From Candidatus Omnitrophota bacterium (GTDB lineage: Bacteria; Omnitrophota; Gorgyraeia; JAGLLT01): a DNA stretch of 64,000 nucleotides. The position numbers were made by a program, and so were the translations under genes. The notes under the pieces are model-generated. The model did no database searches. It was not told where the DNA came from and was given only the letters and a program-made list of their open reading frames with translations. Shown here one piece after another: positions 13,713 to 57,170 of this stretch (its first letter is position 1; every line of letters starts with the position of its first letter). The stretch lies in NCBI GenBank assembly GCA_023140385.1, contig JAGLLT010000021.1, forward strand, positions 1,068-65,067. Reading direction: 5' to 3'.

Positions 13713-13991
13713 TTGTCAAAACTAGTTACTCTTTATACGTTTAAAAAACTCTAAACCCTAAACTCTAATATCTAAATCCTAAATAATTTCAAAATTCTAA
13801 TGCTCAAATGTTATAAACCTTAAGTGTCTTTGTTTTGGTCATTTGCCTGCCTGTCGGTAGGCAGGTATTTTGGACATTTGGATTTGTTTAGTATTTAGTG
13901 CTTAGTATTTAGGATTTTTACAATAAATATAACTCTTTTAAATCACGTGGTTCTTTTGCAATTTTTTAAACAACTTTGACAGTATGCAACC
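13713..13991 (+). repeat. intergenic repeat family 1, copy A (with 20-bp CCTGCC..GGCAGG hairpin insert at 13846-13865)
   Basis: ~85-95% identical to the copies at 25930, 45121, 46151 and 56911; internal inverted repeats AAATCCTAAATA/TATTTAGGATTT and CAAATGT/ACATTTG. Confidence 0.85.
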
Positions 13992-13995
13992 AGCG

Positions 13996-15099
13996 CTATT
14001 TTTTTATTCTTTGACTGATGACGTTTTTTATGAGGCGCTCAGAAATTCCTTCACGTATTATGACCTTTCCGATGTTTACCGGCAGGACAAATCTGTTTTT
14101 CCCGGAGATAAATTTTTTGTCATGCAAGTAAGCCGGCATTATTTTTTCTAATGGAGCGTTTTTTATGTGGATAGGCAGGCCGATCATTGAGATGATACTT
14201 TCGATGCGGCAGAGAGTTTTTTGATTACAGATTTTTAACCTGCAGGCTATTTCACTGGCGCATATCATGCCTATGGCGATAGCCTCTCCGTGAGTATAAC
14301 TTTTGCCGTAGTCTGACGCCGTTTCAATGGCGTGCCCAATGGTGTGGCCGAAGTTAAGAATGGTGCGTATGCCTTTGGTTTCTCTTTCATCTTGTGATAC
14401 GACCCTGGCCTTTATTCGCGACGATTGGATGATGATGTGGCTGAGAGCTTCCTTATCCAATTCAAGTATTTTATGGTAGTTAAGTTCAATAAACCTAAAA
14501 AGCTGGCTATCGGTTATAACGCCGTATTTGATTACTTCAGCCAGCCCCGTTTTGAGTTGTCTTAAGTTCAGGGATGACACGGTGGATACATCGCTAAAAA
14601 CCAAACGCGGCTGGTAAAACGCGCCCAATAAGTTTTTCCCATATTGTAAATCAACCGCTACTTTGCCGCCAATGCTTGAATCAACCTGAGCCAAAAGGCT
14701 GGTTGGTACCTGCACGTAAGGAATTCCTCTTTTGTAAACGGCAGCCGCAAAGCCGCTTAAATCTCCGATTACTCCTCCACCCAGCGCGATTACGAAGATT
14801 CTCTTTCGTACGTCAATACGCGCTATTTTAGAAATGACTTTACTCAGACAACTTACCGATTTCGCTTTTTCTGAGTCAGGCACTTCGATAAAATCATTTT
14901 TTATGGAAGATTTTGAGAGAGTTTTTACTATTTTTTCGTTATATAATTTTTTTATTTTGGAGTTGCTGATAATTACGGCGTGATTGCCGATATTTGACTC
15001 TTTTAACAGCCTGCCCAGGCAATTGAACTGGTTGTTCGCTATGTAGATACCGTAGCTTCTTTCTTTTAGATTTACTGTGATCTTTTTTAAGTTTTTCAT
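13996..15099 (-). CDS. aroB: 3-dehydroquinate synthase
   Basis: VIALGGGVIGDLSGFAAAVYKRGIPYVQVPTSLLAQVDSSIGGKVAVD. Confidence 0.9.
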   Translation of the reverse strand: MKNLKKITVNLKERSYGIYIANNQFNCLGRLLKESNIGNHAVIISNSKIKKLYNEKIVKTLSKSSIKNDFIEVPDSEKAKSVSCLSKVISKIARIDVRKRIFVIALGGGVIGDLSGFAAAVYKRGIPYVQVPTSLLAQVDSSIGGKVAVDLQYGKNLLGAFYQPRLVFSDVSTVSSLNLRQLKTGLAEVIKYGVITDSQLFRFIELNYHKILELDKEALSHIIIQSSRIKARVVSQDERETKGIRTILNFGHTIGHAIETASDYGKSYTHGEAIAIGMICASEIACRLKICNQKTLCRIESIISMIGLPIHIKNAPLEKIMPAYLHDKKFISGKNRFVLPVNIGKVIIREGISERLIKNVISQRIKK

Positions 15100-15169
15100 G
15101 TGGTTTAGTATAACAATAATAAGGAGTTAAGTCAAGTTAGTTATTGAGGTTATGAGTGCCTGAAATAAC

Positions 15170-15826
15170 TTAATGGATGCTGTATAGATTAATGATAAAA
15201 CCGACAATAGCAAGAATAAAATCAGCGAGTGCTGTGAAATAAAACAGCATAAAAATAATTATAATTCCGTAGGGAGCGATTTTCTTATACCGCCAGGCCG
15301 TCTCCCGCGGCAGGAATGCCTCTAATATTCGAGAGCCGTCCAAGGGATGTACGGGAATTAGATTAAATACGCCTAAAAATAAATTAATCAAAATAAGGTA
15401 GATCAAAAAGAGTATAAAAGGATTGGTGATTACTATATTATTACTTAAACTAAGAATTTCAGAAGGCAAAATACCGCCCAAGCGCAGCAGTCCGGCGGCG
15501 CAGGTAGCTGTAAAAAGGTTAGCCGCCGGCCCGGCCAGCGATACGTAGACCATATCCTTTTTAGGATTATTTAGGTTGTAGGAATTAATCGGCACGGGTT
15601 TTGCCCAGCCGAAAAGTATAGGAAAGTTTATGATAAGAAGAAAAGCGGGCGCGGCAATTGTGCCTATGGGATCAATGTGCGCTATAGGATTAAAGGTAAC
15701 TCTTCCCGCTTCCCGCGCTGTCGGGTCGCCTAATTTTTCAGCCGTCCATCCATGAGCGAACTCGTGAATAATTATCGCGACCGTAAAGGCTAAAATTAAA
15801 AAAAGTTTATCAATAATAAAAAACAT
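15170..15826 (-). CDS. site-2 protease family (M50) membrane metalloprotease
   Basis: HEFAHGWTA HExxH motif in a polytopic membrane protein. Confidence 0.7.
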   Translation of the reverse strand: MFFIIDKLFLILAFTVAIIIHEFAHGWTAEKLGDPTAREAGRVTFNPIAHIDPIGTIAAPAFLLIINFPILFGWAKPVPINSYNLNNPKKDMVYVSLAGPAANLFTATCAAGLLRLGGILPSEILSLSNNIVITNPFILFLIYLILINLFLGVFNLIPVHPLDGSRILEAFLPRETAWRYKKIAPYGIIIIFMLFYFTALADFILAIVGFIINLYSIH

Positions 15827-15838
15827 TTCATTCTTTTT

Positions 15839-16666
15839 TTAATTTAACAGTTCTATTTTGACAACATAAATCAGGGGGTATCTGGAGGCGGCATTGCTCT
15901 TTTCACCGTAGAGCTTAACTTTGCAGTTTACGTAAGTATCTAAATCAAGAGCCGCGCTCTTTAAATAATATTTTGTTTTTCTGCCGGTTTTGAGTTTATG
16001 CGTGGCATCTACTCCGAAAACCCTTCCTAAATCTCTTATTGTTCCTTCCGCGCTATAGATTTCCTTTGAAGCAGGCCGCAGTTTGCTCTTTTCTTTATCT
16101 TTTTCTTTCGGATAGACGATTACCTTTATTTTATTTTCAACTTTTTTAGCATAGGTTTTTTCTTTTAGCCCGGCTTGTTCAATTTTTTTACAGTCGCTAT
16201 AGTAGTCGACAAACGGTTTTTTTATCCATCCGCTGCAGTTAGCCGGAGCTTTTATTTTATACCAGCCGGCGACAGTACCGACAACCTTAACTTTAAAGCC
16301 CCTCTCTAATTTACCCAGGACGTTGTAGCTGGAACCGGGGCCGGCTCTTACGTTTAAAATAGTAACCTGAACCAGGCCGCTATTCGATATGTACTCTTTG
16401 GCGACATAACAATATACGTCATTGGGAAGTTCTATCTTGTACCAGCCGTAGTATATGCCCCGGACTACAATTTTATCTCCCTTAGACAGCTGTTTTAACG
16501 AAGTAAAATTTTTGTTATAACCGGCCCTTAAATTTACTCTCCCGGCTTTTACTTTTCCTACAAATGGATAATCCCGGGCGTTAAGCGGAGCGGCGGCTAA
16601 TATGGAAGCGGTTATAGCGGCCAGAATAACTGCTCTTTTAACTGAATAAAAGCCGGTTATCCGCAT
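15839..16666 (-). CDS. secreted protein with two bacterial SH3 (SH3b) domains
   Basis: Signal peptide; repeated GRVNLRAGYN...GWYKIELP and VTILNVRAGPGSSYNVLGKL...GWYKIKAP. Confidence 0.65.
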   Translation of the reverse strand: MRITGFYSVKRAVILAAITASILAAAPLNARDYPFVGKVKAGRVNLRAGYNKNFTSLKQLSKGDKIVVRGIYYGWYKIELPNDVYCYVAKEYISNSGLVQVTILNVRAGPGSSYNVLGKLERGFKVKVVGTVAGWYKIKAPANCSGWIKKPFVDYYSDCKKIEQAGLKEKTYAKKVENKIKVIVYPKEKDKEKSKLRPASKEIYSAEGTIRDLGRVFGVDATHKLKTGRKTKYYLKSAALDLDTYVNCKVKLYGEKSNAASRYPLIYVVKIELLN

Positions 16667-16926
16667 TACTTTTCTTTGCCTTTTTGAGACTGAGCTTCTT
16701 CTTTGGTAGACTTCTCCGCTTCCTCGGCAGCCTTCTCTTCCGCTTCCTTAGGCTTTTGTTTCTTCAGCTTTAACTTCATTACTTTAACTTTAGGCAGGCC
16801 GAACACCGAATCATTCTCATTCCACTTGCCCCGCTCTTTGAGCTTACTGATCTTCTCAAAACGGTTAAGGACGCTTCTTATCTTTTTGTCCTTGGAAGCT
16901 GATTTTAAGCTTTTATGTTGTGACAT
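16666..16926 (-). CDS. small basic Lys/Glu-rich protein (possibly Sbp-like)
   Basis: MSQHKSLKSASKDKKIRSVLNRFEKISKLKERGKW... then a KE-rich tail; family assignment uncertain. Confidence 0.35.
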   Translation of the reverse strand: MSQHKSLKSASKDKKIRSVLNRFEKISKLKERGKWNENDSVFGLPKVKVMKLKLKKQKPKEAEEKAAEEAEKSTKEEAQSQKGKEK

Positions 16927-16942
16927 CCCTTCCTCCTCTTTT

Positions 16943-17569
16943 TTAATTCTGAATTAAACGGCTTTTAACATAACACCCTTTGTATTCCTCACTAAGTTTT
17001 TTTCTGAGTTTTCGCGCTTTCACTTTGTCTTTATAGTTTCCTACAAAAACAATGTGGTACTTGTTATTTGAATCGATAAAAGCTGTATATCCGCGTTTTT
17101 TTAGTTTTTCAGCCTCTTTTTCCGCCCGGGATAACTGAGCGTAAGCGGCAAGCTGCAAACTGTAGGTTTTATAAGCGGGCGGCTTTTTGTCTTCTATCGC
17201 GCCAGCCGCCATCTGCTCCCCCTGTTTTTCTTCTACGGCCTTACTTTCGATTTGCCGCTCTTCCTCCAACCCTATAGTTGCTTTCCGGCTGTTTTCTTTT
17301 TTAACGGCCTCAGTTTCTGCCGTTACGGCAAGCTTGTCTGTCTTACCCGCGGCGGGTAAACTCATTCTTTTGCCTTTTTCTACTCCAAGGGAAAATATTA
17401 CAACATAGAGCAGAATGACGGCTATTATTAAAGAAACCAGTTTTTCGCGTGAGATACTGATTAGTATATTTTTTAGCTTGGGCACGCTTTTAAACGCTTT
17501 TGCCTTTTTAACGCGGCCCTTTGGAAATTCACTGAATAATTCTGACTGATATTCACGGTTTTCGTTCAT
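16943..17569 (-). CDS. SPOR domain-containing membrane protein
   Basis: Single TM plus C-terminal SPOR-like YSLQLAAYAQLSRAEKEAEKLKKRGYTAFIDSNNKYHIVFVGNYKDKVKARKL. Confidence 0.65.
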   Translation of the reverse strand: MNENREYQSELFSEFPKGRVKKAKAFKSVPKLKNILISISREKLVSLIIAVILLYVVIFSLGVEKGKRMSLPAAGKTDKLAVTAETEAVKKENSRKATIGLEEERQIESKAVEEKQGEQMAAGAIEDKKPPAYKTYSLQLAAYAQLSRAEKEAEKLKKRGYTAFIDSNNKYHIVFVGNYKDKVKARKLRKKLSEEYKGCYVKSRLIQN

Positions 17570-17586
17570 TTATATACCGATTCCCA

Positions 17587-19068
17587 TTAAGCAACTTTTT
17601 TGATTTTTTTAGTTTTTTTAATAACTTTCAGAAAGGCCTTAACGATTTTTGGGTCAAATTGCGTGCCGCTATTTTTGTTTATTTCTTTTATTGCCTGGTC
17701 GATAGATTTAGCTCTGCGATACGGCCTCTTGGTTATCATGGCGTCAAAGGCGTCAACAATCGACAATATTCTGGCGCCGATTGGTATTTCTTTACCCTTT
17801 AATCCTTCCGGATAACCGGAGCCGTCATATTTTTCACGGTGATAAAGAATGATCGGTATGGCCGGCTCTAAAACTTTAAGATGCTTGAGAATCGACGCGC
17901 TTTTTGTAGGATGCTGTTTTATCATTTTAAATTCTTTGCTTGTTAGTCTTGAGTTTTTTTGAAGAATTTTTTCAGGTATGCCTATTTTGCCGACGTCATG
18001 CAGTTTAACGGCGTAATTCAGGGCATTAATATTATCTTTGGATAAATTCAGTTCGTGGGCAATGTCGGTTATTAGTTTTTTAAATTTTGCCTCCGGTATA
18101 TGAGCCTGTCTGTAGATACCTGAAAGCGTTGTGAGCGATTTAATGCTTCCTACGGCTACCTTTTCCCGCTGTTTGTTTAGCCTCGCGTTTTTAATGGCAA
18201 CGACGGCTTGCTCAGACAAGGTACTTAGGATTTCCTGGTCAAAGTAATTAAAAGGTTTTTTATCTACTTTGTCAGCGACTACAATGACACCAAGAACATC
18301 TTCTTCTATAAGCGGCATTGCGAGACAATGTTCTGTTAACATGGGGATTGCTTTTTTAGCTGATTGGCCGGCCATGCCGTCACCGAATTTAATCTTATGG
18401 GTGTCTGATAACTGCCCTCTTGGAGTTACGCAGGCCATTGGTTTTAAACATCGCCCGTTTTTTTCCGTCAGATAAATGGAGCATTTTTTAACCTTCATTA
18501 CTTGAAGAGATAATCTTGCCAAGCGCGGCAAAAGATCCTTCAGATCAAGAGTAGTGCTTATGAGCCTGTGTATGGTGTGAATGGTCGAAAGGGCCGCTGT
18601 TCTGGGCTGAATGGTTTCATAGAGCCTTGTGAGCTCCATATCGTTCTGCATTTTTAAAACAGCGGTATTTAAATAAGACTGAAAAATTAGGCTGTACTCT
18701 TTCGCGTTTAAACATTGAATATCGGCGGTTATTACATAGCCAAACAGGTAGTTTTCGCTTAAAAATGGAAAAATGTACGCTGTTGAGTTAGCATCGTATT
18801 TAACTCCTACCGGATTATGACTTTTTTTAACTTTATGAAGCGAGGCATAGATAGTAATAAAAACTTTTTTATCTTTTTCCGACTTTTTATGCTTATTTAG
18901 AAAAGAGGCTGGGAATTTATCTTTAAACTCAGGAATCAACTGCGGGACTGTTTCTATTTCCAGCCAAACTGTTTTTTTTCCCCAGGCCTTGAGGAATACC
19001 TTTTTCATTTTTTGATATTCTTCAGAAGTGATTAAGTTATGAAATAATTCCCCTTTGTTTTTTTTCAT
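17587..19068 (-). CDS. GAF domain + HD-GYP phosphodiesterase (c-di-GMP turnover)
   Basis: C-terminal HDVGKIGIP...YHREKYDGSGYPEGLKG (HD and GYP motifs); GAF-like region upstream. Confidence 0.7.
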   Translation of the reverse strand: MKKNKGELFHNLITSEEYQKMKKVFLKAWGKKTVWLEIETVPQLIPEFKDKFPASFLNKHKKSEKDKKVFITIYASLHKVKKSHNPVGVKYDANSTAYIFPFLSENYLFGYVITADIQCLNAKEYSLIFQSYLNTAVLKMQNDMELTRLYETIQPRTAALSTIHTIHRLISTTLDLKDLLPRLARLSLQVMKVKKCSIYLTEKNGRCLKPMACVTPRGQLSDTHKIKFGDGMAGQSAKKAIPMLTEHCLAMPLIEEDVLGVIVVADKVDKKPFNYFDQEILSTLSEQAVVAIKNARLNKQREKVAVGSIKSLTTLSGIYRQAHIPEAKFKKLITDIAHELNLSKDNINALNYAVKLHDVGKIGIPEKILQKNSRLTSKEFKMIKQHPTKSASILKHLKVLEPAIPIILYHREKYDGSGYPEGLKGKEIPIGARILSIVDAFDAMITKRPYRRAKSIDQAIKEINKNSGTQFDPKIVKAFLKVIKKTKKIKKVA

Positions 19069-19095
19069 TTAACGCTATCCTTTTTTTCCGCGGGA

Positions 19096-21509: not shown

Positions 21510-21577
21510 ATGGGGTGTTTTGATGTAGATTAACCGTAGTTTTTAGTATTAAAACCGTTTATATTAAAAATAAATAG

Positions 21578-21850
21578 CTATTTAATCATCTTTTTCATTA
21601 TTAAACCGGGTTTAAATATAACCACCTTTTTGGGCGGAACCGGAACAACTTCGCCGGTTCGGGGATTTCTTCCTGTTCTTCCCCGCCTTTGCTTTATTTT
21701 AAAAACACCGAAATTACGCAACTCTACTTTTTTGCCTTCTTGTAGGTTTTCAATGATGCATTGAAGTATCTTTTGTACTACCCTTTTGACGTCAATTTGT
21801 TTGATTTTGGTTTCACTTGCTATTCTTAAGACAATGTCTTTTTTTGTCAT
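21578..21850 (-). CDS. HU/IHF family DNA-binding protein
   Basis: 90 aa with RNFGVFKIKQRRGRTGRNPRTGEVVPVPPKKVVIFKPG. Confidence 0.85.
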   Translation of the reverse strand: MTKKDIVLRIASETKIKQIDVKRVVQKILQCIIENLQEGKKVELRNFGVFKIKQRRGRTGRNPRTGEVVPVPPKKVVIFKPGLIMKKMIK

Positions 21851-25929: not shown

Positions 25930-26197
25930 TGTCAAAATTATTTACCCTTTATACGTTTAAAAAACTCTAAACAAACTCTAAATCCTAATATCTAAATCCT
26001 AAATAATCTCAAAATTCTAATGCTCAAATGTTATAAACCTTAAGTGTTTTTGTTTTGGTCATTTGTATTTTGGACATTTGGATTTGTTTAGTGTTTCGGA
26101 TTTAGTATTTAGGATTTTCCTCTCCCTCCATGATAAAAATATTCCTTTTAAATCACTTAGTTTCCTTATAATTTATCATACAACTTGTGATATTACC
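25930..26197 (+). repeat. intergenic repeat family 1, copy B (no central insert; divergent 3' third)
   Basis: Shares the CTGTCAAAA..TTTATACGTTTAAAAAACTCTAAAC..TTTTGGTCATTTG..GGACATTTGGATTTG blocks and the 3' CATACAACTTGTGATATTACC block. Confidence 0.85.
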
Positions 26198-27185: not shown

Positions 27186-27196
27186 TTTGCTTCCCT

Positions 27197-38404: not shown

Positions 38405-38460
38405 CTTCTTCCTCCCTATCTTTACTGTTGTATTGTAAAAAATATCTGAATTTAATCACC

Positions 38461-38700
38461 AATAACCAAGTTATACCCTAATCCTATGCTTCGCTTCTTA
38501 TATCAAGACGTTCGCATTCGCTCACTCTAAGGATTAAGACGCTCACTTTGTTCGCTCTAAGGATTAAGTTTTTTTCACTTAATCCCCGCTCTTACTCAAT
38601 CCTATTTTTTAATCCTTTAACTTAATCCTTAGAGCTCACCAACAATTTGTCGATGGTGAGCGTCTTAATCCTTAATCCTGTTTTTTGCGTCTTGGTTATT
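38461..38700 (+). repeat. intergenic repeat family 2, copy 1 (bounded by 10-bp inverted repeat AATAACCAAG / CTTGGTTATT)
   Basis: ~100-bp core CAAGACGTTCGCATTCGCTCACTCTAAGGATTAAGACGCTCACTTTGTTC..CACTTAATCCCCGC shared with 61897-61998; multiple GGATTAAG/CTTAATCC units. Confidence 0.8.
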
Positions 38701-40027: not shown

Positions 40028-40630
40028 TTAATTGTTTTGTCCAGATAACCTTTGCCCTTTTGATTCCATTTTTATCAAGAAATTAGTATTGTGTCCCCCG
40101 ATTAGCATTGGCTTGTTATCTTTTTTTATTTCGTCTTGCCATTTATTTACATTTGAAATCAATCCATCAACTAAATCACATAATTCTTTTAGATATTTCT
40201 CATTAAGTGGGTACAGTGTTTCTTTTGAAATGGTACTTATGCCATGGATTTTGTTTGTTTCGGTGTTCACCTGATAAGCCAATTCATTTTGTTCTTGAAA
40301 TGCATGCGCATAAATTTTAGTTGCTTGATTTATAATGTATTCATGCAATTTTACGTATTTTTTGGGAATATGTTTTTTGTTTAATCCTGCGTTGCGAGTT
40401 GTAGAGTTGAAACATCTTCTATATTTAATAAAAATCGCTGTATATAGCGCATCAATAACCACAACCTTTGTTAAATTTTTGGGGAAAATTTCATCCTTAA
40501 TTTTTTTTAATAGAATTTGGCAAATTTTTTTTATTCTTTCAAGATCTCTATTTTGTATAGATGTCAAACCAGATAATCTTAATAATTTCTTGTTGGTGGT
40601 TTTTATTTTATTTAACTTAAAATTTGCCAT
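40028..40630 (-). CDS. hypothetical protein in low-GC island
   Basis: 200 aa with no recognisable motif; AT-rich codon usage unlike the flanking genes. Confidence 0.4.
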   Translation of the reverse strand: MANFKLNKIKTTNKKLLRLSGLTSIQNRDLERIKKICQILLKKIKDEIFPKNLTKVVVIDALYTAIFIKYRRCFNSTTRNAGLNKKHIPKKYVKLHEYIINQATKIYAHAFQEQNELAYQVNTETNKIHGISTISKETLYPLNEKYLKELCDLVDGLISNVNKWQDEIKKDNKPMLIGGHNTNFLIKMESKGQRLSGQNN

Positions 40631-40790
40631 AGTTTAAATTAATTATTTAAAGATAACGTTTGAACTCACTGGTTTTTACGGAGCACAGCGGAGTAAAAAT
40701 CCAGTGCAGGGTCAAAGCAGTGCCTGACCCCGTTGTTTAATAACACGCGCAGCGAAAAAAGTCAGGTTGAGCAAATTGTTATGTGTTCTT

Positions 40791-41165
40791 TTATTTCTTT
40801 TTCAATTTGTGTGAAAACAATGTGCTTGATAGGTGATGTATTTTCTTCCTTTTTTGCCCTATGTCAGATCTTTTTATTTTTTTATAATAGTCGTAATTAC
40901 ATTTGTTGCCATAAATACGAAACTTTGTAACCAAAAATCCACCTATAATCAAAACAATTCCGATTTTCCAGTTTATGAAAAGATAAATAACTCCTCCAAT
41001 CATTAGATATCCAGTTATTACACTTAAAAGAGGATTTGGTCCCATAGGAATTACATGAACTATTGAAGCAATAAGAAATAATGCTATTGCTAATTTCCAG
41101 TTGAAAAAAATAAAAATTATAGTAAGTACAAAGAGCAACGATTTAATTATATTAAGAATTTTCAT
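40791..41165 (-). CDS. small 4-TM membrane protein with basic C-terminal tail (island gene)
   Basis: Four hydrophobic helices followed by KKIKRSDIGQKRKK...KLKKK. Confidence 0.45.
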   Translation of the reverse strand: MKILNIIKSLLFVLTIIFIFFNWKLAIALFLIASIVHVIPMGPNPLLSVITGYLMIGGVIYLFINWKIGIVLIIGGFLVTKFRIYGNKCNYDYYKKIKRSDIGQKRKKIHHLSSTLFSHKLKKK

Positions 41166-41255
41166 AGATTTATATTATATCTCAGATAACATTTGAGCTT
41201 ACCTACTGGGTTGAGCTCCTTTTGTGCGCTCCCTCCAGATAGATGAAGCGATTTG

Positions 41256-41597
41256 TTATGATATTTTGTCCTTATATTTCTCATAATCTGAGAGATATGC
41301 TCTCTCAGATTCATCTATAAACTCTTGTTTTCTGTCTCTGAGATCTCGAAGTTTTCCATGTATGCTCTTGTAGACAATCTGATGAGCTTGGTTTTTAATT
41401 TTCTCTTCAACATATTCATCAAAATCTACCTCTTTGCTAAGTATCGAATTTACAAGATTTAATAAATCCTCTTTAGTGATCCTGTCAATTGGTTGAAATT
41501 CACCATCCTTATCAAGAAAATGACCAAGATCATTATCGATCTTCAATAGCTTCATATGCTTGCCTCCTGCTTTCATAGGCTTCCAATCCCGCCTCAA
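41256..41597 (-). CDS. hypothetical small acidic/helical protein overlapping the 3' end of the PHP-ATPase gene
   Basis: Likely start is an internal Met (MKLLKIDND..., ~41555); charged and helical with no motif. Confidence 0.4.
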   Translation of the reverse strand: MRRDWKPMKAGGKHMKLLKIDNDLGHFLDKDGEFQPIDRITKEDLLNLVNSILSKEVDFDEYVEEKIKNQAHQIVYKSIHGKLRDLRDRKQEFIDESERAYLSDYEKYKDKIS

Positions 41598-43560
41598 GTG
41601 AATTCAACATAATTTTATGATTTTTGATAGATCTCCCGTCGATGGATTTGAGTATCTTATCGGTTGGATGTCCAGAGTAAATCCTATAAATTGTCTTCCC
41701 ACTCTCTACTTCCTTGTTGGCATACAGCAGGTAATCTGCACTAACAGAGGCCCCCACCGTGCTATTGTGTGTAACCACAACCACAGGCATTGATTCTGAT
41801 ATTTCCCTTAGAATTTGATTCACATCACTTTTTAGAAACATATTGTCGAATGAGGATTCTGGCTCATCAATGAGTAAAATATCAAAGTTTTGGGCATCTT
41901 TGATTTCCTGTAGCAATCGAAATTCGGACCGTTCTCCTCCTGAAACGTCAACGCCATCAGAATTTAGAATTTTGTATTCAATTTTTGTAAACAGTCTGTA
42001 TAGTTCTGATCGTACTAAGTGGTTATCAGCCATTAGAGCTTGTAGGTACCGGTATGGGGCTCCGTATTCTTTCAGAGCTTCCTTAAATGATGTGTTTACT
42101 CCACTTGCAGATTTAATCTCTCCAGCCTTAGTGAATGCACCTTTGCTAGCAACAACAGAAAATCCTTGAACATTCTCCTCAAATATTATAGACTCTTTCC
42201 GCAAGCTGTTCACAATATCTTCGAATCGTTTCACCTTTCTGTCTTCCATGCACACTCGATACAAATCAACATCATTAACCTGAATGGCAGATGTGCGCGT
42301 TTTTAGACTATCTTTTGTATCTTTGATAATCCCATTGAGAAACCGCCTTTTTTTATTTTCCAGCGCCTTACTCCAGAGCAATTCAATTAATTCACACGCA
42401 AGTTTTTTCAAAGACTTTATATCAACATGTTTCTCGATAATATTCCTGTATTCGATGTTCTCAATAACTTGACGAACTGATGAAATGAGTTCTTTTAGAA
42501 CTATGTCATCCCTTACAGGAAATGCTGTCTCATCAAAGAGGGCAACTTTTGAATATGCATCACGCCTATATGCTTCTTCTGCTGACTTAAGGAGGGAAGA
42601 AATATAATTCTCAACATCCCGCTTGTTACGTTCTAAGTCAACATTCATCACATCATCTAAGACTGACTTGAATGCAGATAGGTAACGATCAAGAAAAGTA
42701 CTACGTTTTTTTTGAACTTCGTTTTTAAACTCACGATCATACGCTGCCTCGTCTCGTTGAACCAATGAAAACTGTCTGATATATTTTACCCCTTCATATA
42801 CATCATTTATCTTATTCAAAGTATATGTTTTACCAGTTGATCTATCACCAAGGAGGACATTCAATCCTGTGGACATCTTTTGTCCGTCATCAAAAATCTG
42901 AAATAAGGAATTACCGTCATCCTCTGACAAAAAAACTTTACCCTTGTCTCTAAGGCAGGCCCTAATGGCACTAAAGCTCAACTCGCCGCAATCCAGAAAA
43001 GTCTGTCTTGTAGGCAAACTACATAGGCTATCACTTGCCCTAACATCACTAAATAGAACAGGGGTCAGTTTTGTTTTATCTTTTATGACACGGATAAATT
43101 TCTTTGCGCTATCGACCTCACCTGCTGTGATATAGGAAGAGAGTTCCTCTAGTGTTTTACCCCGAATGGAGGGCTTTTTGTCATGATGGGGGATAATTAA
43201 ATAACTGTTTAGGTTTCCGTAAATATTTTTCAGATTATCTACTGTAATGCTATCATCAACATGAGATATTCTTTTTAAGACCTCATCAGACCTAGATTCA
43301 AAGTCTTCAATGTCTGATCCGTCGCTCAAAAGTAATATATGGCAATTATCCAGGTTTATCTCAATTCCTGGGAATACTGTAATGGGTAGTGATTCATTTA
43401 TAGCCCTGAATTGTTCCGCGTTAAATTTATTATGATTAGTTATCGCAATAGCATCCAGATTAGCTTCTGTTACGTATCTTTTTAGACTATCCATGCAGAA
43501 AGTAAAGTCGCTATCACTGATGGTTTTAATGGTGTGAATGTGTAGATCTATTTTTTTCAT
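41533..43560 (-). CDS. PHP-domain phosphoesterase fused to SMC/Rad50-like ABC ATPase (Ppl/OLD-class defence-like)
   Basis: N-terminal IDLHIHT, ITNHN, IIPHHD (PHP); then Walker A LLGDRSTGKTYTL, a helical insert, signature VSGGERSEF, Walker B ILLIDEPESSFD and H-loop VVVTHN. Confidence 0.7.
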   Translation of the reverse strand: MKKIDLHIHTIKTISDSDFTFCMDSLKRYVTEANLDAIAITNHNKFNAEQFRAINESLPITVFPGIEINLDNCHILLLSDGSDIEDFESRSDEVLKRISHVDDSITVDNLKNIYGNLNSYLIIPHHDKKPSIRGKTLEELSSYITAGEVDSAKKFIRVIKDKTKLTPVLFSDVRASDSLCSLPTRQTFLDCGELSFSAIRACLRDKGKVFLSEDDGNSLFQIFDDGQKMSTGLNVLLGDRSTGKTYTLNKINDVYEGVKYIRQFSLVQRDEAAYDREFKNEVQKKRSTFLDRYLSAFKSVLDDVMNVDLERNKRDVENYISSLLKSAEEAYRRDAYSKVALFDETAFPVRDDIVLKELISSVRQVIENIEYRNIIEKHVDIKSLKKLACELIELLWSKALENKKRRFLNGIIKDTKDSLKTRTSAIQVNDVDLYRVCMEDRKVKRFEDIVNSLRKESIIFEENVQGFSVVASKGAFTKAGEIKSASGVNTSFKEALKEYGAPYRYLQALMADNHLVRSELYRLFTKIEYKILNSDGVDVSGGERSEFRLLQEIKDAQNFDILLIDEPESSFDNMFLKSDVNQILREISESMPVVVVTHNSTVGASVSADYLLYANKEVESGKTIYRIYSGHPTDKILKSIDGRSIKNHKIMLNSLEAGLEAYESRRQAYEAIEDR

Positions 43561-45120: not shown

Positions 45121-45315
45121 TGTCAAAACTATTTACTCTCTCTAAACCCTAATATCTAAATCCTAAATAATTTCAAAATTCTAATGTTCAAATGTTATAA
45201 ACCTTAAGTGCCTTTGTTTTGGTCATTTGCATTTTGGACATTTGGATTTGTTTAGTATTTAGTGCTTAGTATTTATGATTTCCCGTCCTTCATACAACTT
45301 TTAACATTACCAAAT
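45121..45315 (+). repeat. intergenic repeat family 1, copy C (5' block shortened)
   Basis: TGTCAAAACTATTTACTC...CTAAACCCTAATATCTAAATCCTAAATAATTTC...GGTCATTTGCATTTTGGACATTTGGATTTG...CATACAACTTTTAACATTACCAAAT. Confidence 0.85.
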
Positions 45316-46127: not shown

Positions 46128-46150
46128 ACTGCCCTCACAAAAATAATCGT

Positions 46151-46390
46151 ATTGTTAAAATTATTTATCCTTTTATACGTTTAAAAAGCTCTAAACAAAC
46201 TCTAAACCCTAATATCTAAATCCTAAATAATTTCAAAATTCTAATGTTCAAATGTTATAAATCTTAAGTGTTTTTGTTTTGGTCATTTGTATTTTGCGTG
46301 CCCCGTAGTTAAATGCGAAGCATTTGTACTACTGGGGGACATTTGGATTTGTTTAGTATTTGGTGCTTAGTATTTAGGGTTTTTACAATG
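46151..46390 (+). repeat. intergenic repeat family 1, copy D (41-bp nested-hairpin insert at 46297-46337)
   Basis: Family blocks present; extra CGTGCCCCGTAGTT-AAATGC-GAA-GCATTT-GTACTACTGGGG at the same central position as the copy A insert. Confidence 0.85.
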
Positions 46391-49036: not shown

Positions 49037-49037
49037 A

Positions 49038-49700: not shown

Positions 49701-49714
49701 AAGAACTTCTCCTT

Positions 49715-50668: not shown

Positions 50669-50731
50669 CTTCTTTTAAATATTTTATAGTGGCTATAATT
50701 ATATCATAAAATCTTTCAAAATTGTCAAAGT

Positions 50732-51460: not shown

Positions 51461-51476
51461 TGTTTACGAATGAACC

Positions 51477-52097
51477 TTATTTATTCTTAAAAGATATAGT
51501 GACGTTAAAGGTTGCCTCTTTCTGCTTAAGGTTTTTGGGAAACGGAGGAAAGGGATTAGCTTTTTTAATGCTGTCTAACGCTGCCATTCTAAGCAAGACG
51601 TTGGAAGATGACTTTTTTTCATTAATCCTTATTATTTTTAGCTGACCGTCAGAAGCCAAGGTGAAGGATAGATGAACTTCTCCATGGGAAATTAAACCCG
51701 GATAAATAATATAATTTTTAACTTTAGCTTTAAGCAGTTGATGGTAATTCGGATATTCTTCTTTTTTGGAAAAACTTACTTTGGCTGTCGCGACTATCTT
51801 TTCTTGTTTAGCGGTTTGCCCGAGCTTTGCTTTCTTTTTTTCTACCTTGTCGGCCGATTTTTCTTTTACCTTTGTATAGTTTGATATCTTAGGGGAAACT
51901 TTTTTTACTAATTTCCGGGCGGGCTTGCTGTAGGCATCAATGGTTTTTTCACGGCTTTTCTCAATCTGCGGAATATAGGTGGCTTCCACTTGAGTCATCT
52001 TTTTAGTGAGCGAAAAGCTGTTGCCGGGAAAAAAAAGAAAGCTATGGCTTATAAAAGAAATAATCAACGCGATAATAAAGGTCTTATCGTTACTCAT
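51477..52097 (-). CDS. TonB family energy-transducer-like protein
   Basis: N-terminal TM, Lys-rich linker and a C-terminal TonB_C-like ~90 aa. Confidence 0.55.
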   Translation of the reverse strand: MSNDKTFIIALIISFISHSFLFFPGNSFSLTKKMTQVEATYIPQIEKSREKTIDAYSKPARKLVKKVSPKISNYTKVKEKSADKVEKKKAKLGQTAKQEKIVATAKVSFSKKEEYPNYHQLLKAKVKNYIIYPGLISHGEVHLSFTLASDGQLKIIRINEKKSSSNVLLRMAALDSIKKANPFPPFPKNLKQKEATFNVTISFKNK

Positions 52098-52200
52098 TAT
52101 TTGGTTACCTTAAGCTAAAAACACCATATATAGTTACTTCCGCTATAACTCTACCATATATATAGTATAAATACAAGCATTAGGCAAGCATTATTTAAGA

Positions 52201-52782
52201 TTATTTTAGTATTTGAATCCGATGCGGCGGCCAGAAGATAAAAAAGGCCTTGCCTACTATGTTTTCTTCAGGGACAAAACCCCAATAGCGGGAGTCTTTG
52301 CTCGCGTAGCTGTTATCTCCGAGCGCGTAATAGGAGTCCGCCGGAACAATAATTTCATCCTGCCCAAAAGGCCCGGCCGCGTAGTAATGATTTTTAGTTA
52401 TCCGCGGCAGTTCAGTTCGGCTCCCGTTTATTAATATTTTTCCATCATTAATTTTTATTCTATCTCCTTCTTTTCCTATCAGCCTTTTTATGAAGTCTCT
52501 TTTTTGATCAAGGGGATACTTGAAGACTATGATGTCGCCCCTTGCGGGAGATCCGAAGCCGGGAAGCCTGAAGTTGGTAAAGGGGACTTTGGCTCCATAG
52601 GTTAGCTTGGTAACTAATAATTTATCACCCACTTTAAGGGTGGGTATCATAGAGCCGGAGGGAATTTTAAACGACTGCACGAAAAAGGTACGTAAAATTA
52701 AGGCTAAAATAACGGCTATTACCAATGTTTCAACCCATTCTCTTGTCGCGGATTTTCTACTTTTCATCATTAATCCTTTCAA
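52201..52782 (-). CDS. lepB: signal peptidase I
   Basis: SGSMIPTL (catalytic Ser) and GDNSYASKDSRYWGFV (Lys box). Confidence 0.85.
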   Translation of the reverse strand: MKGLMMKSRKSATREWVETLVIAVILALILRTFFVQSFKIPSGSMIPTLKVGDKLLVTKLTYGAKVPFTNFRLPGFGSPARGDIIVFKYPLDQKRDFIKRLIGKEGDRIKINDGKILINGSRTELPRITKNHYYAAGPFGQDEIIVPADSYYALGDNSYASKDSRYWGFVPEENIVGKAFFIFWPPHRIQILK

Positions 52783-54578
52783 ATTTTTAATATTTCTTTA
52801 AAGGCCTCTTGGGGTATCTGAACGTTTCCAAACTGTTTCATACGCTTCTTGCCCCTTTTTTGTTTATCCCACAACTTCCTTTTACGGGTAATATCGCCTC
52901 CGTAGCACTTGCCGGTGACGTGTTTTTTTAAAGCTGAAATATTGGTTCTGGCAATTACCTTACTGCCTATCGCCGCTTGAACGGCTACCTGAAATAATTG
53001 CCGGGGAATTAAACTCCTTAATTTTTCGGCGATATCTCTCGCCCTGTAAGGGGCCTTGTCTTTGTGGGTAATAAAACTAAACGCGTCAAATACACGCCCG
53101 TTAATCATTATGTCAACCTTGACCATATCCGCCTTTTTGTAAGCGGTAAAGTCATAGTCAAAGGACGCGTAGCCCCTGGTGATTGACTTTAGCTTATCAT
53201 AAAAGTCAACGATTACTTCACTTAGCGGCAGTTCGTAGGTTATAATCAGCCTGTTTTCTCCCAGATATTCAGTCGCGATGTAAATACCGCGCTTATTCTT
53301 CACCAACTGCATAATATCGCTGACGTACTCCTGGGGCGTAATTATGAAGGCTTTTATCCAGGGTTCATTTATATTAGTGATTTTTTGGACCTCGGGAAAC
53401 TTTGAGGGATTGTGAATATCAACAACCTCGCCGTTGCTTTTTTCTATCCTGTAAACCACGCTGGGAACGGTGATTACCAGGCTGATATCAAATTCTCTTT
53501 CAATTCTTTCCTGAATAATTTCAGAATGGAGCAGTCCCAGAAAACCGCACCTGAAGCCAAAGCCCAGAGATTCGGAAGACTCTTGCTCATAAGTAAACGA
53601 CGCGTCGCTTAGTCTCAATTTTTCCAGAGCGCTTTTTAGTTCCACAAAATCTTTACTGTTTTCCGGATAGATTCCGCAAAAAACAAAGGGTTTTATCTTT
53701 TTGTAGCCGGGAAGCCTCTGGGCGGCCGGCTTGAGACTGGAGGTAATGGTTTCTCCAACGCTCACCTCTTTGGCGTTCTTTATGTTGCAGGTAATATAGC
53801 CCACCTCCCCGCATTGGAGTTTGTCCGTTTTTCGCGGTTTTGGAGAAAAGGTTCCTACTTCCTGTACCTGATGAGTAGTGCCGGTATTCATCAGTTTTAT
53901 TTTCATTTGAGGTGTAATTACTCCGTCTATTACGCGCACGTAGATAATGACTCCTTTGTAGATATTAAAACTTGAGTCAAAGACAAGCGCCTTAAGAGGA
54001 GCTTGAGGACTGCCTGAAGGCGGAGGTATGCTTTTGATAATTTGCGATAAAATCTCTTTTATTCCCTCACCCTTTTTAGCGCTGGAAAGAAGGATATCTT
54101 CTTTGTTAAACTTTAAAGCGTTTACCAGCTGATTGTTAGTTCCCTCTATGTCCGCGTGCTGTAGGTCTATTTTATTTATTACGGGAATAATCTTTAAATT
54201 ACTTTCTTTAGCTAAATGGTAGTTAGCTACGGTCTGGGCTTCTATGCCCTCAGAGGCGTCAATCAGCAGCAGCGCCCCCTCGGAGGCGGAAAGGGATTTA
54301 GATACTTCGTAGGTAAAGTCTACGTGCCCGGGAGTGTCAATCAGGTTTAGAATGTATTTTTTGTTATCAGTGTGTTTATAAGAAAATCTTACAGCGGACG
54401 CCTTAATGGTTATTCCGCGTTCACGCTCTAAGTCCATATCGTCAAGCAGCTGCTCTTTTAAGTCACGCTTGCTGATAGCTCCGGTAAATTCGAGAAGCCG
54501 GTCACATAGGGTTGATTTACCGTGGTCTATGTGGGCGATTATGCAAAAATTTCTTATTAGTTTTTGATTATAATGCAT
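52779..54578 (-). CDS. lepA: elongation factor 4
   Basis: IRNFCIIAHIDHGKSTL G-domain and the LepA-specific C-terminal domain. Confidence 0.95.
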   Translation of the reverse strand: MHYNQKLIRNFCIIAHIDHGKSTLCDRLLEFTGAISKRDLKEQLLDDMDLERERGITIKASAVRFSYKHTDNKKYILNLIDTPGHVDFTYEVSKSLSASEGALLLIDASEGIEAQTVANYHLAKESNLKIIPVINKIDLQHADIEGTNNQLVNALKFNKEDILLSSAKKGEGIKEILSQIIKSIPPPSGSPQAPLKALVFDSSFNIYKGVIIYVRVIDGVITPQMKIKLMNTGTTHQVQEVGTFSPKPRKTDKLQCGEVGYITCNIKNAKEVSVGETITSSLKPAAQRLPGYKKIKPFVFCGIYPENSKDFVELKSALEKLRLSDASFTYEQESSESLGFGFRCGFLGLLHSEIIQERIEREFDISLVITVPSVVYRIEKSNGEVVDIHNPSKFPEVQKITNINEPWIKAFIITPQEYVSDIMQLVKNKRGIYIATEYLGENRLIITYELPLSEVIVDFYDKLKSITRGYASFDYDFTAYKKADMVKVDIMINGRVFDAFSFITHKDKAPYRARDIAEKLRSLIPRQLFQVAVQAAIGSKVIARTNISALKKHVTGKCYGGDITRKRKLWDKQKRGKKRMKQFGNVQIPQEAFKEILKI

Positions 54579-54587
54579 GGGATTATA

Positions 54588-56009
54588 CTATTTAATTAAC
54601 TTTGCCGCGAAGTTTATCATAGCGGACGTTGACTTTTTTGTATTTGACTCGGCGTATATCCTTAAGACGGGTTCTGTTCCGGAAAATCTGAAGAGAAGCC
54701 AGCTTCCGTCATCAAGAATAAATTTTATTCCGTCTATCTTTTTTATTTCTTTTATTTTCTTATTAGCTATTGTCTCTGACCGGTAATTTTTTATTTTTGA
54801 TTTCAGCTTTTCACGCGTCTGCCCGGGAAACTTAAAGTCCGCCCTCTGGTAATAAAATTTGCCGAAGTTTTTTTTCATTTCTCCTAAAAGCTCTACAATA
54901 GACTTGCCGGTTTTTGAGAGCATTTCAAGAAGTAGAAGTTGTATGAGGAGTCCGTCGCGGTCAGGCAGGTAGTTTCGTATTCCAATACCGCCCGACTCTT
55001 CCCCCGCCAGTGATACCTTTTCGTTTATCATCAGGTTTGCCAGATATTTGAAGCCAATTGGAGTTTCGATCAGGTTTAAATTATAGCTTTCACATATTTT
55101 GTTAATCAGGTCAGAGGATGAGATGGTTTTACCTATGGCGACACTTTCATTCTTGCAGCGCGTAAAGTATATAATCAAAAGGCCAAAAACTTCGCTGGAG
55201 GTGATAAACCGCCCTCCGGGAGCAATTACTGCCAGGCGATCGCCGTCACCGTCTGTGGCAAGGCCAATGTCGTATTCTCCCTCTTTCATTAAAGAGGTTA
55301 ACTGTTTAAGATTTTTCGCGATCGGCTCGGGAGGAACGTTTCCGAAGTCAGCCCGCGGTTTTTCACGCAAAATAGTAACATTTATCCCGGATGACTTGAG
55401 GATATCCAAAATAATCGCGTTAGAAGCGCCGTGCATGCTGTCAATCAGAACATTTAATTTGCATCTATTCAGGGCTTTCATATCCAGAAAACTCCGGATG
55501 TTCTTTTTGTAAGCGCTAAGGTTGTCTGTTTCTTCAATTAATCCTTTAGTCACGGCAGTTTTAAAGGGAAGGCTTTTAACCTTATTTTTACCTATATAGG
55601 CCTCAATTTTTTCAGTAATTTCCGGGCCGGCGGATGAGCCCATATTTGTCTTGAACTTTATACCGTTAAACTCGGCGGGATTATGGCTTGCTGTAACCAT
55701 TATACCCCCGGAGAGTCCTTGTCTTCCGGCCGCAAGGCTTAAAGCGGGAGTGGGAATAAAGCTCTTTGAGAGTAGGGCCTTGATACCGTTGGCAGCCAGT
55801 ACGCGGGCTATAATTTCCGCGTACTTGTCTGATAAAAAACGTGTATCATAGCCGACTGCCATTTTTACCCGGTGATTTTTATTATTAATTTTATTTACGT
55901 AGTCACAGACAGCCTGAGCCATGATTTCCACGTTTTTATAAGTAAATTCCTTGGCTATAAGCGCTCGCCAACCGTCAGTTCCGAATTTTAAACCTTTATG
56001 TCTTTTAAT
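54588..56009 (-). CDS. phosphoglucomutase/phosphomannomutase family protein
   Basis: TASHNPAEFNG active site; the conserved N-terminal KFGTDGWRALIAKEF lies in-frame upstream of the first canonical start (55931 GTG), so the start is set at ATT 56007-56009 (uncertain). Confidence 0.7.
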   Translation of the reverse strand: MKRHKGLKFGTDGWRALIAKEFTYKNVEIMAQAVCDYVNKINNKNHRVKMAVGYDTRFLSDKYAEIIARVLAANGIKALLSKSFIPTPALSLAAGRQGLSGGIMVTASHNPAEFNGIKFKTNMGSSAGPEITEKIEAYIGKNKVKSLPFKTAVTKGLIEETDNLSAYKKNIRSFLDMKALNRCKLNVLIDSMHGASNAIILDILKSSGINVTILREKPRADFGNVPPEPIAKNLKQLTSLMKEGEYDIGLATDGDGDRLAVIAPGGRFITSSEVFGLLIIYFTRCKNESVAIGKTISSSDLINKICESYNLNLIETPIGFKYLANLMINEKVSLAGEESGGIGIRNYLPDRDGLLIQLLLLEMLSKTGKSIVELLGEMKKNFGKFYYQRADFKFPGQTREKLKSKIKNYRSETIANKKIKEIKKIDGIKFILDDGSWLLFRFSGTEPVLRIYAESNTKKSTSAMINFAAKLIK

Positions 56010-56635
56010 TTTTCAACGGATCCTTTCATATTGTCAGAGCCGAATAAATATGTACCGGCAACCAGCATATTGGCTCCGGCTTCGACTGCCATTTTGGCAG
56101 TTTTGTAGTTTATGCCGCCGTCTACCTCTATATCTCCGGAAAAAGCCCGCCTTATCCGCTTTATTTTTGAAAGGCAGCTGCTGATAAATTCCTGCCCTCC
56201 GAAACCGGGATTGACGGTCATAACCAGCACCAAATCAACCATATTTAATACAGGCGCTATATCTTTTACAGGTGTCCGGGGATTAAGGGAAATGCCGGCC
56301 TTAAGCCCCAGCTCTTTTATTTCCTTTATTAGCTGGATAGGGCGCTCTACCGTTTCGATGTGGACGGTGATAATGTCGCTGCCCGCTTTCACGAAGGCCT
56401 CTAAAAATTTGCGGGGTTTTTCAATCATAAGGTGGACATCCAGAATTAGTTTTGTGTGTTTGCGGATATCCCGGATAATAGCCGGCCCAAAGGTTATGTT
56501 AGGGACAAAGTGTCCATCCATTATGTCGCAATGCAAGAAGTCTACCCCCGCGTCCTCCGCTCTTTTTATCTCAACGGAAAGGTTGGAAAAGTCGGCCGCT
56601 AAAATTGAAGGCCCGGCTTTAATCCTTTTATTCAT
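55988..56635 (-). CDS. rpe: ribulose-phosphate 3-epimerase
   Basis: PSILAADF, HCDIMDGHFVPN, VHLM motifs; start placed at MNKRIKAGP after the upstream ORF stop. Confidence 0.9.
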   Translation of the reverse strand: MNKRIKAGPSILAADFSNLSVEIKRAEDAGVDFLHCDIMDGHFVPNITFGPAIIRDIRKHTKLILDVHLMIEKPRKFLEAFVKAGSDIITVHIETVERPIQLIKEIKELGLKAGISLNPRTPVKDIAPVLNMVDLVLVMTVNPGFGGQEFISSCLSKIKRIRRAFSGDIEVDGGINYKTAKMAVEAGANMLVAGTYLFGSDNMKGSVEKLKDIKV

Positions 56636-56894
56636 CCTTATTGCCTCTGGGGCCGTGCGATTTCTTACCCCTTGTCCTGCCAATCATAACATTTTTGGCC
56701 AGAATATCTTTTGCCTTATTAGTACGTTTAATAATTTTTTCTTCCTGGCTTATAGCCGCCTTTTTTTCTTTAGAACCCTCGGCATCTTCTCTCTTAAGAT
56801 ACCCTTCAGCCTTTTGTTTTTTACCCTTTTCTTCAACTTCCACCGGCTTTTTTCTTTTCAATCTAGAAAATAGATTCATCCTTATTGCCTCCAC
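56628..56894 (-). CDS. small Lys/Glu-rich hypothetical protein
   Basis: Low-complexity charged sequence; probable ATG start at 56879 with GGAGG RBS. Confidence 0.35.
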   Translation of the reverse strand: MEAIRMNLFSRLKRKKPVEVEEKGKKQKAEGYLKREDAEGSKEKKAAISQEEKIIKRTNKAKDILAKNVMIGRTRGKKSHGPRGNKDE

Positions 56895-56910
56895 TTTTTA
56901 ACCATATTGT

Positions 56911-57170
56911 TAAAACTACTTACTCTTTATACGTTTAAAAAACTCTAAACAAACTCTAAATCCTAATATCTAAATCCTAAATAATCTCAAAATTCTAATG
57001 CTCAAATGTTATAAACCTTAAGTGTCTTTGTTTTGGTCATTTGTGTTTTGGACATTTGGATTTGTTTAGTATTTAGTGCTTAGTATTTAGGATTTTTACA
57101 ATGAATATAACTCCTTTAAAACCATTCTGTTCCCTCACGATTTTTCATACAACTTTTGACATTATCCAAA
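56911..57170 (+). repeat. intergenic repeat family 1, copy E (canonical, no insert)
   Basis: Full set of family blocks, including the 3' CATACAACTTTTGACATTATCCAAA that abuts the downstream gene stop. Confidence 0.85.

Follow-up and report, generated by a model that had tools for sequence, protein, structure and literature searches.

The 64,000-nucleotide stretch of contig JAGLLT010000021.1 from Candidatus Omnitrophota bacterium (assembly GCA_023140385.1) analysed here, called the window below, contains five copies (c1–c5) of a dispersed, modular, non-coding intergenic repeat, which is probably derived from a hairpin cassette resembling the intervening sequences (IVSs) of bacterial 23S rRNA. 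The copies are 195–280 bp long, lie on one strand, and each fills the spacer between two minus-strand genes. They are recovered, at the positions where the original prediction had placed them, both by a repeat search, which groups them as families D1–D4 (a 93-nt block with 92–96% identity and a 78-nt block with 65–96%), and by a profile built from the copies, which has exactly five matches in the 64 kb (E = 1e-57 to 4e-86). Extension of the search beyond the window adds a sixth copy, with the same orientation to its genes as c1–c5, at the hisD–hisB junction ~7 kb past the right end of the window (locus L146), giving a density of six copies in ~74 kb.

The position of the copies relative to the genes is regular. 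The left ends are located 23–28 nt from the downstream start codon and leave the Shine-Dalgarno sequence intact, close to the predicted range of 17–30 nt; c5 fits the measured range only with the annotated start, which maps to window position 56879, while the GTG at 56894 would place it at 16 nt. The right ends are 0–10 nt from the upstream stop codon. Among the downstream neighbours, Pfam matches confirm the assignments of HIT, RmuC and Memo, and give no match for the proteins that had been described as 'OMP-like' (266 aa, at c1) and 'KE-rich' (at c5). The upstream neighbours are DHQ synthase, an Na/Ca exchanger, an M16 peptidase and an M50-CBS peptidase, with Memo upstream of c3. The Memo protein of the window has 100% identity with a protein recorded under Candidatus Omnitrophica. 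The same sequence is present in the metagenome-assembled genome (MAG) GCA_030638025.1 and in independent ENA assemblies, so the repeats are not an artefact of a single assembly. Two assemblies of the same population part exactly within the sixth copy (L146, 2690-3010; L147, 2610-3010), with hisD upstream of it in one and an Fe-hydrogenase gene in the other; the cause of this split is either that copies have recombined or that one assembly is chimeric at the repeat.

Architecture and folding

Alignment of the copies resolves the element into a left terminus and module, a core, and a right module and terminus (Table 1), so that the earlier division into three conserved blocks was essentially right. 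The core is a 145-nt imperfect palindrome with two ~60-nt arms of degenerate heptamers, YYCTAAA and TTTAGRR; one arm reads (YYCTAAA)n...CAAATCCAAATG, the other GTTTTGrACATTTGGATTTG(TTTAGRR)4TTT. Outer modules of ~40–75 nt surround the core and end in an 11–14 nt terminal inverted repeat, (G)TAnTGTyAAAAsT, seen in the alignment as TGTyAAAAsT and AsTTTTrACA; in the fold of the + strand the two termini pair with each other. The window copies have both arms and an ATG remnant around a centre of ~25–80 nt that holds no open reading frame (ORF). Parts of the outer modules are missing in two of them: c3 lacks most of both modules, the right one entirely, and keeps both termini, and c4 lacks the right module together with the right terminus. 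The element is multi-copy, small, non-coding and dispersed, with terminal inverted repeats, traits that it shares with miniature inverted-repeat transposable elements (MITEs).

The long inverted repeats noted at first inspection are real, and the folding potential is strong. For the + strand the window cores have folding z-scores of -4.2 to -5.9, for the - strand of -2.1 to -4.6, and among 59 elements from the wider family the cores fold far better than shuffled sequences on both strands, with a mean z of ~-5.5. The flanks of the elements are frequently inverted repeats themselves, so that palindromes are nested in palindromes. A GC hairpin of 16–20 nt, CCTGCCTnnCGGnAGGCAGG, is nested in the heptamer arms of unrelated metagenome contigs and in c1 (sites in Table 1), and its recurrence suggests that an even smaller palindromic element inserts into the arms. 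The arms are also often abutted by another type of repeat with GTCATTGCGAG…CTCGCAATGAC hairpins (L029, L114, L117, L122), further evidence that different palindromic elements nest beside or within each other in such genomes.

Insertion into operon junctions

Syntenic relatives (L015-L019) share the gene order M16, Memo, RmuC, LPG synthase, Trm112 and aroQ with spacers of 2–48 nt, and the order is still kept even though the nearest of them are only 50–58% identical to the window in Memo. The M16–Memo junction, which holds c4, is 263 nt long in the window versus 2–43 nt in the relatives, and the Memo–RmuC junction, which holds c3, is 222 nt versus 4–48 nt. A profile search finds the core and arm family absent from the syntenic relatives compared. 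The short spacers of the relatives imply that c3 and c4 are insertions into tight operon junctions, two sites being 'empty' in relatives. The unrelated flanks of the copies exclude a segmental duplication as their source.

Across the wider family, full elements have no orientation bias towards their host genes (14 sense vs 17 antisense), and half-elements with the TTTAG arm alone lie predominantly in sense orientation just upstream of genes (52 vs 23).

Another segment of the window missing in all syntenic relatives is a low-GC (0.33) island of four genes at 40028–43560, between RmuC and LPG synthase. Two of its ORFs, of 675 and 113 aa, match components A and B of the PADLOC candidate defence system PDC-M49 (E = 8e-297 and 9e-36), and the 124-aa and 200-aa ORFs have no match.

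Distribution of the arms across phyla

The core also occurs in other genomes. When one genome per GTDB species is scanned, the exact 20-mer of the right arm is found at 10 loci. Those in the candidate phyla radiation (CPR) belong to Falkowbacteria, Jorgensenbacteria, Yanofskybacteria and Saccharibacteria; the others are in Sedimentisphaerales (Planctomycetota), Syntrophorhabdaceae and 'Deltaproteobacteria UBA6106', Desulfobacterota being among the phyla represented, with a weak match in Saprospiraceae. Similarity around the 20-mer spans 50–160 nt, and several loci have multiple copies, which also lie in spacers between genes. The other genomes share just the central ~145 nt. The claim of novelty holds only in that the element has no Rfam family and that no description of such elements outside rRNA was found in the literature searched, by sequence strings or by family names; exact 20-mers of the core occur across many phyla. 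A viral origin was considered and rejected, as the 20-mer is absent from IMG/VR.

A degenerate arm pattern recovers at least 120 metagenome contigs, and nearly all those listed have the same architecture. The consensus from 115 distinct arms is (TTTnrAn)x3-TTTGGATTTG-(TTTAGrr)x4-TTT; its period of 7 nt is strict, the purine pairs vary, and the outer boundary is sharp. Applied to 1.03 Mb of loci, the arm profile detects 235 arms, which resolve into 73 left/right pairs, with centres mostly of 0–85 nt, and 89 unpaired arms. In one subfamily of half-elements (L026, L033, L039, L048, L106, L125, L126, L127, L135) a conserved block of ~100 nt (…ATAGCGGAGAACCGCACG…GTATCAGCAGATACACGCC…) with hairpin potential lies upstream of the TTTAG arm; an Rfam search of ten loci with the conserved block upstream of half-arms gave no match. 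The contig of L135 appears perfectly palindromic and is probably an assembly artefact.

Full-length cassettes and the IVP gene

Two copies from a single Falkowbacteria MAG, L005 and L008, and the copy in L121 have a centre of 337–391 nt, which consists of an ORF of 119–126 aa that matches PF05635 (23S_rRNA_IVP) and TIGR02436 (four helix bundle protein). The ORF starts with ATG-TTC-AAA-AC... inside the CTAAA-type arm, and the TTTAG-type arm begins right after its stop codon. All four IVP ORFs in the collected loci are bounded by heptamer arms, three of them by arms of the window-family profile and one by the ends of a second repeat family described below. Every full-length member examined carries a gene of this type, encoding a four-helix-bundle protein of ~120 aa (23S_rRNA_IVP, S23p or Avd-like), between the same arms. 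It is the only gene type seen there, and its product has no transposase domain. A solved relative, PDB 2RLD, is an entry with five chains of one sequence.

A protein search with the IVP sequence scores 7,999 homologues among 8,000 candidates, and proteins 63–76% identical come from many phyla. For an independent test of the association, four IVP genes were picked solely because their proteins are homologous; they come from Nitrospirota, Levybacteria, Sedimentisphaerales and Thermodesulfobacteriota. All four lie in spacers of housekeeping genes, e.g., between the large and small subunit genes of an aconitase-family enzyme, by inference leuC and leuD, or between enolase and a phosphatase. Read directly, all four have (yyCTAAA)n or (yyCGAAA)n arrays that extend to 8–9 nt before the ATG, with a longer distance in L145, whose upstream flank is partly N, and 3' of the stop codon they have GTTTTGAACATTT...(TTTAG/TTTCGrr)n. 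The arm profile is clear for L143 (both arms) and L140 (3' arm); it is marginal for L141 and L145 (E ~0.4), and the evidence for these two is therefore the heptamer pattern read from the sequence. The Nitrospirae contig of L140 also carries, in another spacer (1496–1783), a free-standing gene for a 95-aa GIY-YIG protein, a further small selfish-looking cassette in the neighbourhood of an IVP gene.

When intact cassettes are folded as RNA, the arms pair in a terminal stem of ~55 nt that encloses the ORF, including its ATG (z = -3.9 and -5.2). The 43–45 nt upstream of the gene consist wholly of arm and leave no room for a promoter, suggesting that the cassette is co-transcribed with the host operon.

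Comparison with known systems

The 23S rRNA IVSs with an S23p ORF, known from Leptospira, Coxiella burnetii and Brucella (PMC4990558), are the closest parallel in architecture. The IVS of C. burnetii is a selfish element whose terminal inverted repeats pair into a 28-bp stem; its ORF for a four-helix-bundle S23p protein has tandem GACAGAT heptamers directly upstream of the ATG and is undergoing reductive evolution, the IVS is cut out by RNase III, and its origin and mobility are unresolved (PMC4990558). The full-length members of the present family share the long terminal stem around a ~120-aa PF05635 ORF (L005/L008, L121, L140, L141, L143 and L145), the tandem heptamers just 5' of the ATG, and the location of the ATG and leader in or beside the stem. 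Like the IVSs, they would have no promoter of their own and be transcribed within a host transcript, and both groups include decayed or ORF-less versions and have a distribution that suggests horizontal spread. The elements described here differ in that they occupy operon spacers, not helices 9, 25 or 45 of 23S rRNA; the heptamers are CTAAA/TTTAG or CGAAA/TTTCG in place of GACAGAT, and the arms are ~60 nt long and broken every 5 bp in place of 28 bp. The window copies retain the bounding stem and the tandem heptamers of an IVS, but they lie outside rRNA, have no ORF and are dispersed in at least six copies.

The likeness to BOX, RUP, Correia and ERIC elements drawn in the original prediction stands only as an analogy. 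Like these MITE-like repeats (Correia, ERIC/IRU, RUP, BOX), the window copies are short, non-coding, dispersed and intergenic, have inverted repeats and would be co-transcribed with their neighbours; the modular build recalls that of BOX A-B-C. Correia elements are processed by RNase III. The differences are that the window element has no target-site duplication, that its full-length relative encodes an Avd-like four-helix bundle and not a transposase, and that its core is conserved at the nucleotide level across phyla, unlike the species-restricted MITEs. No cognate autonomous element with the same ends and a transposase was found, and the ORF lists of the window and of its extension include no transposase. 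A miniature IVS-like cassette is thus the better description.

Cyanobacterial short tandemly repeated repetitive (STRR) sequences are intergenic direct repeats of heptamers. A report on Beggiatoaceae, Cyanobacteria and Bacteroidetes, which does not mention S23 or IVSs, places repeats of the heptamer TAACTGA upstream of start codons (PMC4679880). These arrays and the present arms share tandem 7-nt units, an intergenic position often just 5' of start codons, and a patchy spread across phyla that suggests horizontal transfer without an evident mechanism. As each heptamer unit here has a stop codon, the arrays close all three frames, a further likeness. The known arrays are nearly all direct repeats of another heptamer and have no reported associated gene; membership in them was rejected, since the units here are TTTAGRR, have two variable positions and form inverted arms.

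Avd, the accessory protein of diversity-generating retroelements, has a fold homologous to that of the cassette protein and is a partner of nucleic-acid machinery. No reverse transcriptase, template repeat or variable repeat was found beside any cassette examined, and the window copies encode nothing. Integron attC sites and cassettes were also rejected, because the genes between the copies are syntenic housekeeping genes, there is no integrase, and GTTTAG does not fit the R' consensus GTTRRRY. A role as a CsrA sponge was dropped as GGA is not an invariant part of the heptamer; a sigma-54 promoter and DNA uptake sequences were considered from the sequence and dropped, and HutP-like UAG-N4 sites are kept as an analogy only. 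An Rfam scan of the whole window at gathering thresholds yields two tRNAs only, and relaxed scans of c1 and c5 yield nothing below E = 0.7. Promoter and terminator activity had been suggested as a check, and sequence scans of c1 and c5 for sigma-70 promoters and intrinsic terminators, the latter on both strands, find none inside the elements; the nearest approach to an intrinsic terminator is the GC hairpin of c1 followed by TATTTTGG, in this one copy only.

Origin of the window copies

On this evidence, the window copies are probably a lineage-specific, MITE-like family without a gene, derived from an IVS-like hairpin cassette and multiplied in this Omnitrophota genome. All six copies have the same ORF-less centre and the same outer modules, implying that the gene-less unit itself was multiplied and that the copies do not represent six separate deletions. 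The copies would have landed just past stop codons in tight operon junctions, sparing the downstream ribosome-binding site. Without a promoter of its own, the element would be transcribed within the host operon, and its two arms may pair as a long stem that draws the flanks together. By analogy with the 23S rRNA IVSs, this stem is a putative substrate of RNase III, and the element may be excised from the transcript or at least cleaved, which would make the insertion tolerable. The conserved heptamers, rather than the pairing itself, may be the cis-acting signal, and they are a putative recognition site of the pentameric cassette protein or of the mobilising machinery.

Several observations weigh against this interpretation. 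No intact IVP cassette is present in the ~84 kb of the window genome examined, and comparisons with L008 and with L143 give opposite answers for the orientation of the ORF that the window copies would have lost. No universal rRNA motif is found in ~140 arm loci and none of ~150 sampled elements lies in an rRNA gene, so the link to the rRNA IVSs is one of architecture and protein family, not of sequence. No transposase or nuclease activity is known for the encoded protein, which leaves mobility with no known mechanism. Target-site duplications, a proposed check, are found neither at the window copies nor in the wider family: direct reading of the window flanks reveals no direct repeats, and in 39 full elements the longest common k-mer of the two flanks has a mean of 3.6 nt vs 3.4 nt for shuffled pairings. 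The proposed step of RNase III processing is weakened by the form of the stems, which are 5-bp helices broken by 2x2 mismatches, and by the mRNA-sense (minus) strand of the window cores being 8–15 kcal/mol less stable than the + strand. This asymmetry is not family-wide (34 of 59 elements); outside the window the host-sense strand is the weaker in 15 of 24 elements (15 vs 9, p = 0.14), a weak trend. Covariation, which had also been suggested as a check, is not detected and lends no support to a selected RNA stem: in comparisons of identity and of pairability, with G-U pairs counted, the two arms of one element show no excess over arms of different elements, with 0.59 vs 0.63 of variable columns pairable. 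It is the conserved CTAAA/TTTAG motif that gives the hairpin potential, and not compensatory change, a result in line with young selfish copies or with a sequence-specific cis-signal; a functional stem is neither proven nor excluded by it.

A further difficulty leads to the main rival explanation. The outer modules and the short terminal repeats are seen in the window genome only, in no other locus compared, and the window unit could be mobilised via its outer ends with the IVS-like core as a mere passenger. The element would then be a conventional MITE, moved by a DDE-type transposase encoded elsewhere through its outer modules and 11–14 nt termini (TGTCAAAA...TTTTGACA), and the palindrome would have been nested in its founder. 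The outer modules and termini are common to all six copies, c3 keeps both termini despite the loss of internal outer-module sequence, and the pairing of the two termini in the + strand fold, the lack of outer modules in all other core-bearing loci compared and the frequent nesting of palindromes in the core family all agree with this explanation. However, neither the window copies nor the wider family have the direct repeats that it leads one to expect, c4 has no right terminus and yet lies in a spacer like the other copies, neither the window nor its extension has a transposase gene, and the terminal repeat is short and imperfect. A conventional MITE is unlikely.

The copies could also be regulatory or structural modules of operon spacers, kept by host selection to tune downstream expression, e.g., as a hairpin for processing or insulation, as a factor-dependent terminator whose rut-like arm is poor in G and contains C, as a promoter that reads out of the element, or as a place where an RNA-binding protein lands on the UAG/GGA-rich heptamers. 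The constant distance of 23–28 nt from start codons with the Shine-Dalgarno sequence intact, the common orientation of six copies, the 52 vs 23 preference of TTTAG half-elements, and the G-poor 5' arm of the sense strand with YC dinucleotides each 7 nt, seen by direct reading, would suit such a role. But the genes downstream have no functional relation to one another, the junctions work in relatives with spacers of 2–48 nt, c1 and c5 have no sigma-70-type promoter or intrinsic terminator consensus inside, and full elements have no orientation bias; near-identical arms in distant phyla around a selfish-looking gene are hard to fit to a single-host regulon. This makes a host-selected module quite improbable. 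That the copies are paralogues of an independent small structured RNA gene, a long-hairpin small RNA or an antisense RNA, is very improbable: the cores fold significantly better than shuffles, and in each of the five window copies the better fold is that of the + strand, which is antisense to the host genes, but even relaxed Rfam thresholds give no match, c1 and c5 lack promoter and terminator consensus sequences, there is no covariation of the arms and no consistent strand asymmetry in the family (34/59), and those full-length members that were seen code for a protein.

A second repeat family in the window

The window contains two copies of a second family, A and B (Table 1), which are 96% identical over 100 nt, have GGATTAA/TTAATCC heptamers and share a GAGCGAATGCGAACGTCTTG end. 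The ends of this family recur in two contigs of Ca. Kappaea frigidicola. In one of them (L019) a PF05635 (IVP) gene lies between the ends (E = 3e-35), with CTTGTGA heptamers in its 3' flank, and in the sister contig (L018) the ends are present at the same site without the gene. The Kappaea protein has weak matches to NF033474 and PF22296, the link to Avd. Copy A of the window is the gene-less counterpart of this Ca. Kappaea IVP cassette.

Table 1. Positions of the repeat copies, their parts and associated hairpins (window coordinates unless a locus is named; HMM, hidden Markov model)
Feature	Position (strand)	Junction or context	Evidence or sequence
c1, whole element	13713..13985 (+)	aroB (DHQ synthase) / 266-aa ORF	profile E=1.7e-81
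c1, terminal inverted repeat	13713-13722; 13970-13981		TTGTCAAAAC; ACAACTTTGACA
c1, left heptamer arm, YYCTAAA type	13753..13814 (+)		arm HMM E=3e-5
c1, nested 20-nt GC hairpin	13846..13865 (+)	core centre	CCTGCCTGTCGGTAGGCAGG
c1, right heptamer arm	13867..13917 (+)		TTTGGATTTG then TTTAGRR x4; arm HMM E=4e-10
c2, whole element	25930..26197 (+)	Na/Ca-exchanger / HIT	profile E=2.4e-82
c2, arms	25973-26033; 26058-26117		arm HMM
c2, stop codon of upstream gene	26193-26195	inside right terminus	
c3, shortened	45121..45315 (+)	Memo / RmuC	profile E=8.5e-57
c3, arms	45141-45199; 45221-45281		
c4	46151..46390 (+)	M16 peptidase / Memo	profile E=1.5e-68
c4, arms	46197-46258; 46337-46382		
c4, nested 43-nt hairpin insert	46296..46338 (+)	same central point as c1 insert	unique among loci compared
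c5, most complete copy	56907..57170 (+)	M50-CBS peptidase / 83-aa ORF, then Rpe	profile E=3.5e-86
c5, arms	56951-57011; 57037-57095		arm HMM
c5, terminal inverted repeat	56907-56916; 57149-57161		TTGTTAAAAC; ACAACTTTTGACA
Second family, copy A	38405..38695 (-)	Trm112 / aroQ	repeat family D5
Second family, copy B, partial	61871..62008 (-)	trpB / trpA	repeat family D5
GC hairpin, L054	351-370		
GC hairpin, L065	3595-3614		
GC hairpin, L112	3052-3070		
GC hairpin, L060	711-726		16 nt

Significance

The questions of where the rRNA IVSs come from and how they move have stood since about 1990, and so has that of what the very abundant S23p, four-helix-bundle and Avd-like proteins do (PMC4990558). 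The present analysis carries a 35-year-old curiosity of rRNA over to operon junctions, as it places the IVS architecture in hundreds of ordinary ones in different phyla. Conservation across phyla holds for the arms as well as for the protein, the latter with 63–76% amino-acid identity, and gene-less miniatures have clearly multiplied within a genome.

A wider proposal, which we put forward tentatively and consider more likely wrong than right, is that IVS-type hairpin cassettes form a widespread, cross-phylum class of selfish elements, 'intervening sequences of operons'. A gene for an Avd-like pentamer, with its ~60-nt heptamer arms, would colonise the spacers of housekeeping operons in CPR bacteria, Omnitrophota, Planctomycetota, Desulfobacterota and Nitrospirota and would spread without target-site duplications. 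Gene-less miniatures would arise from it and multiply by themselves, the insertions would be tolerated since RNase III would take the element out of the transcript, and the 4–5 heptamers per arm may be binding sites for five protein subunits.

Filled and empty sites, full-length and miniature members, and nested insertions together form a natural data set for the mechanism of insertion. The array of four to five TTTAGRR units is a concrete cis-element and a candidate for binding by a pentameric protein. In practical terms, such repeats break or mis-join MAG assemblies, and they lengthen the spacers of genomes that are otherwise streamlined.

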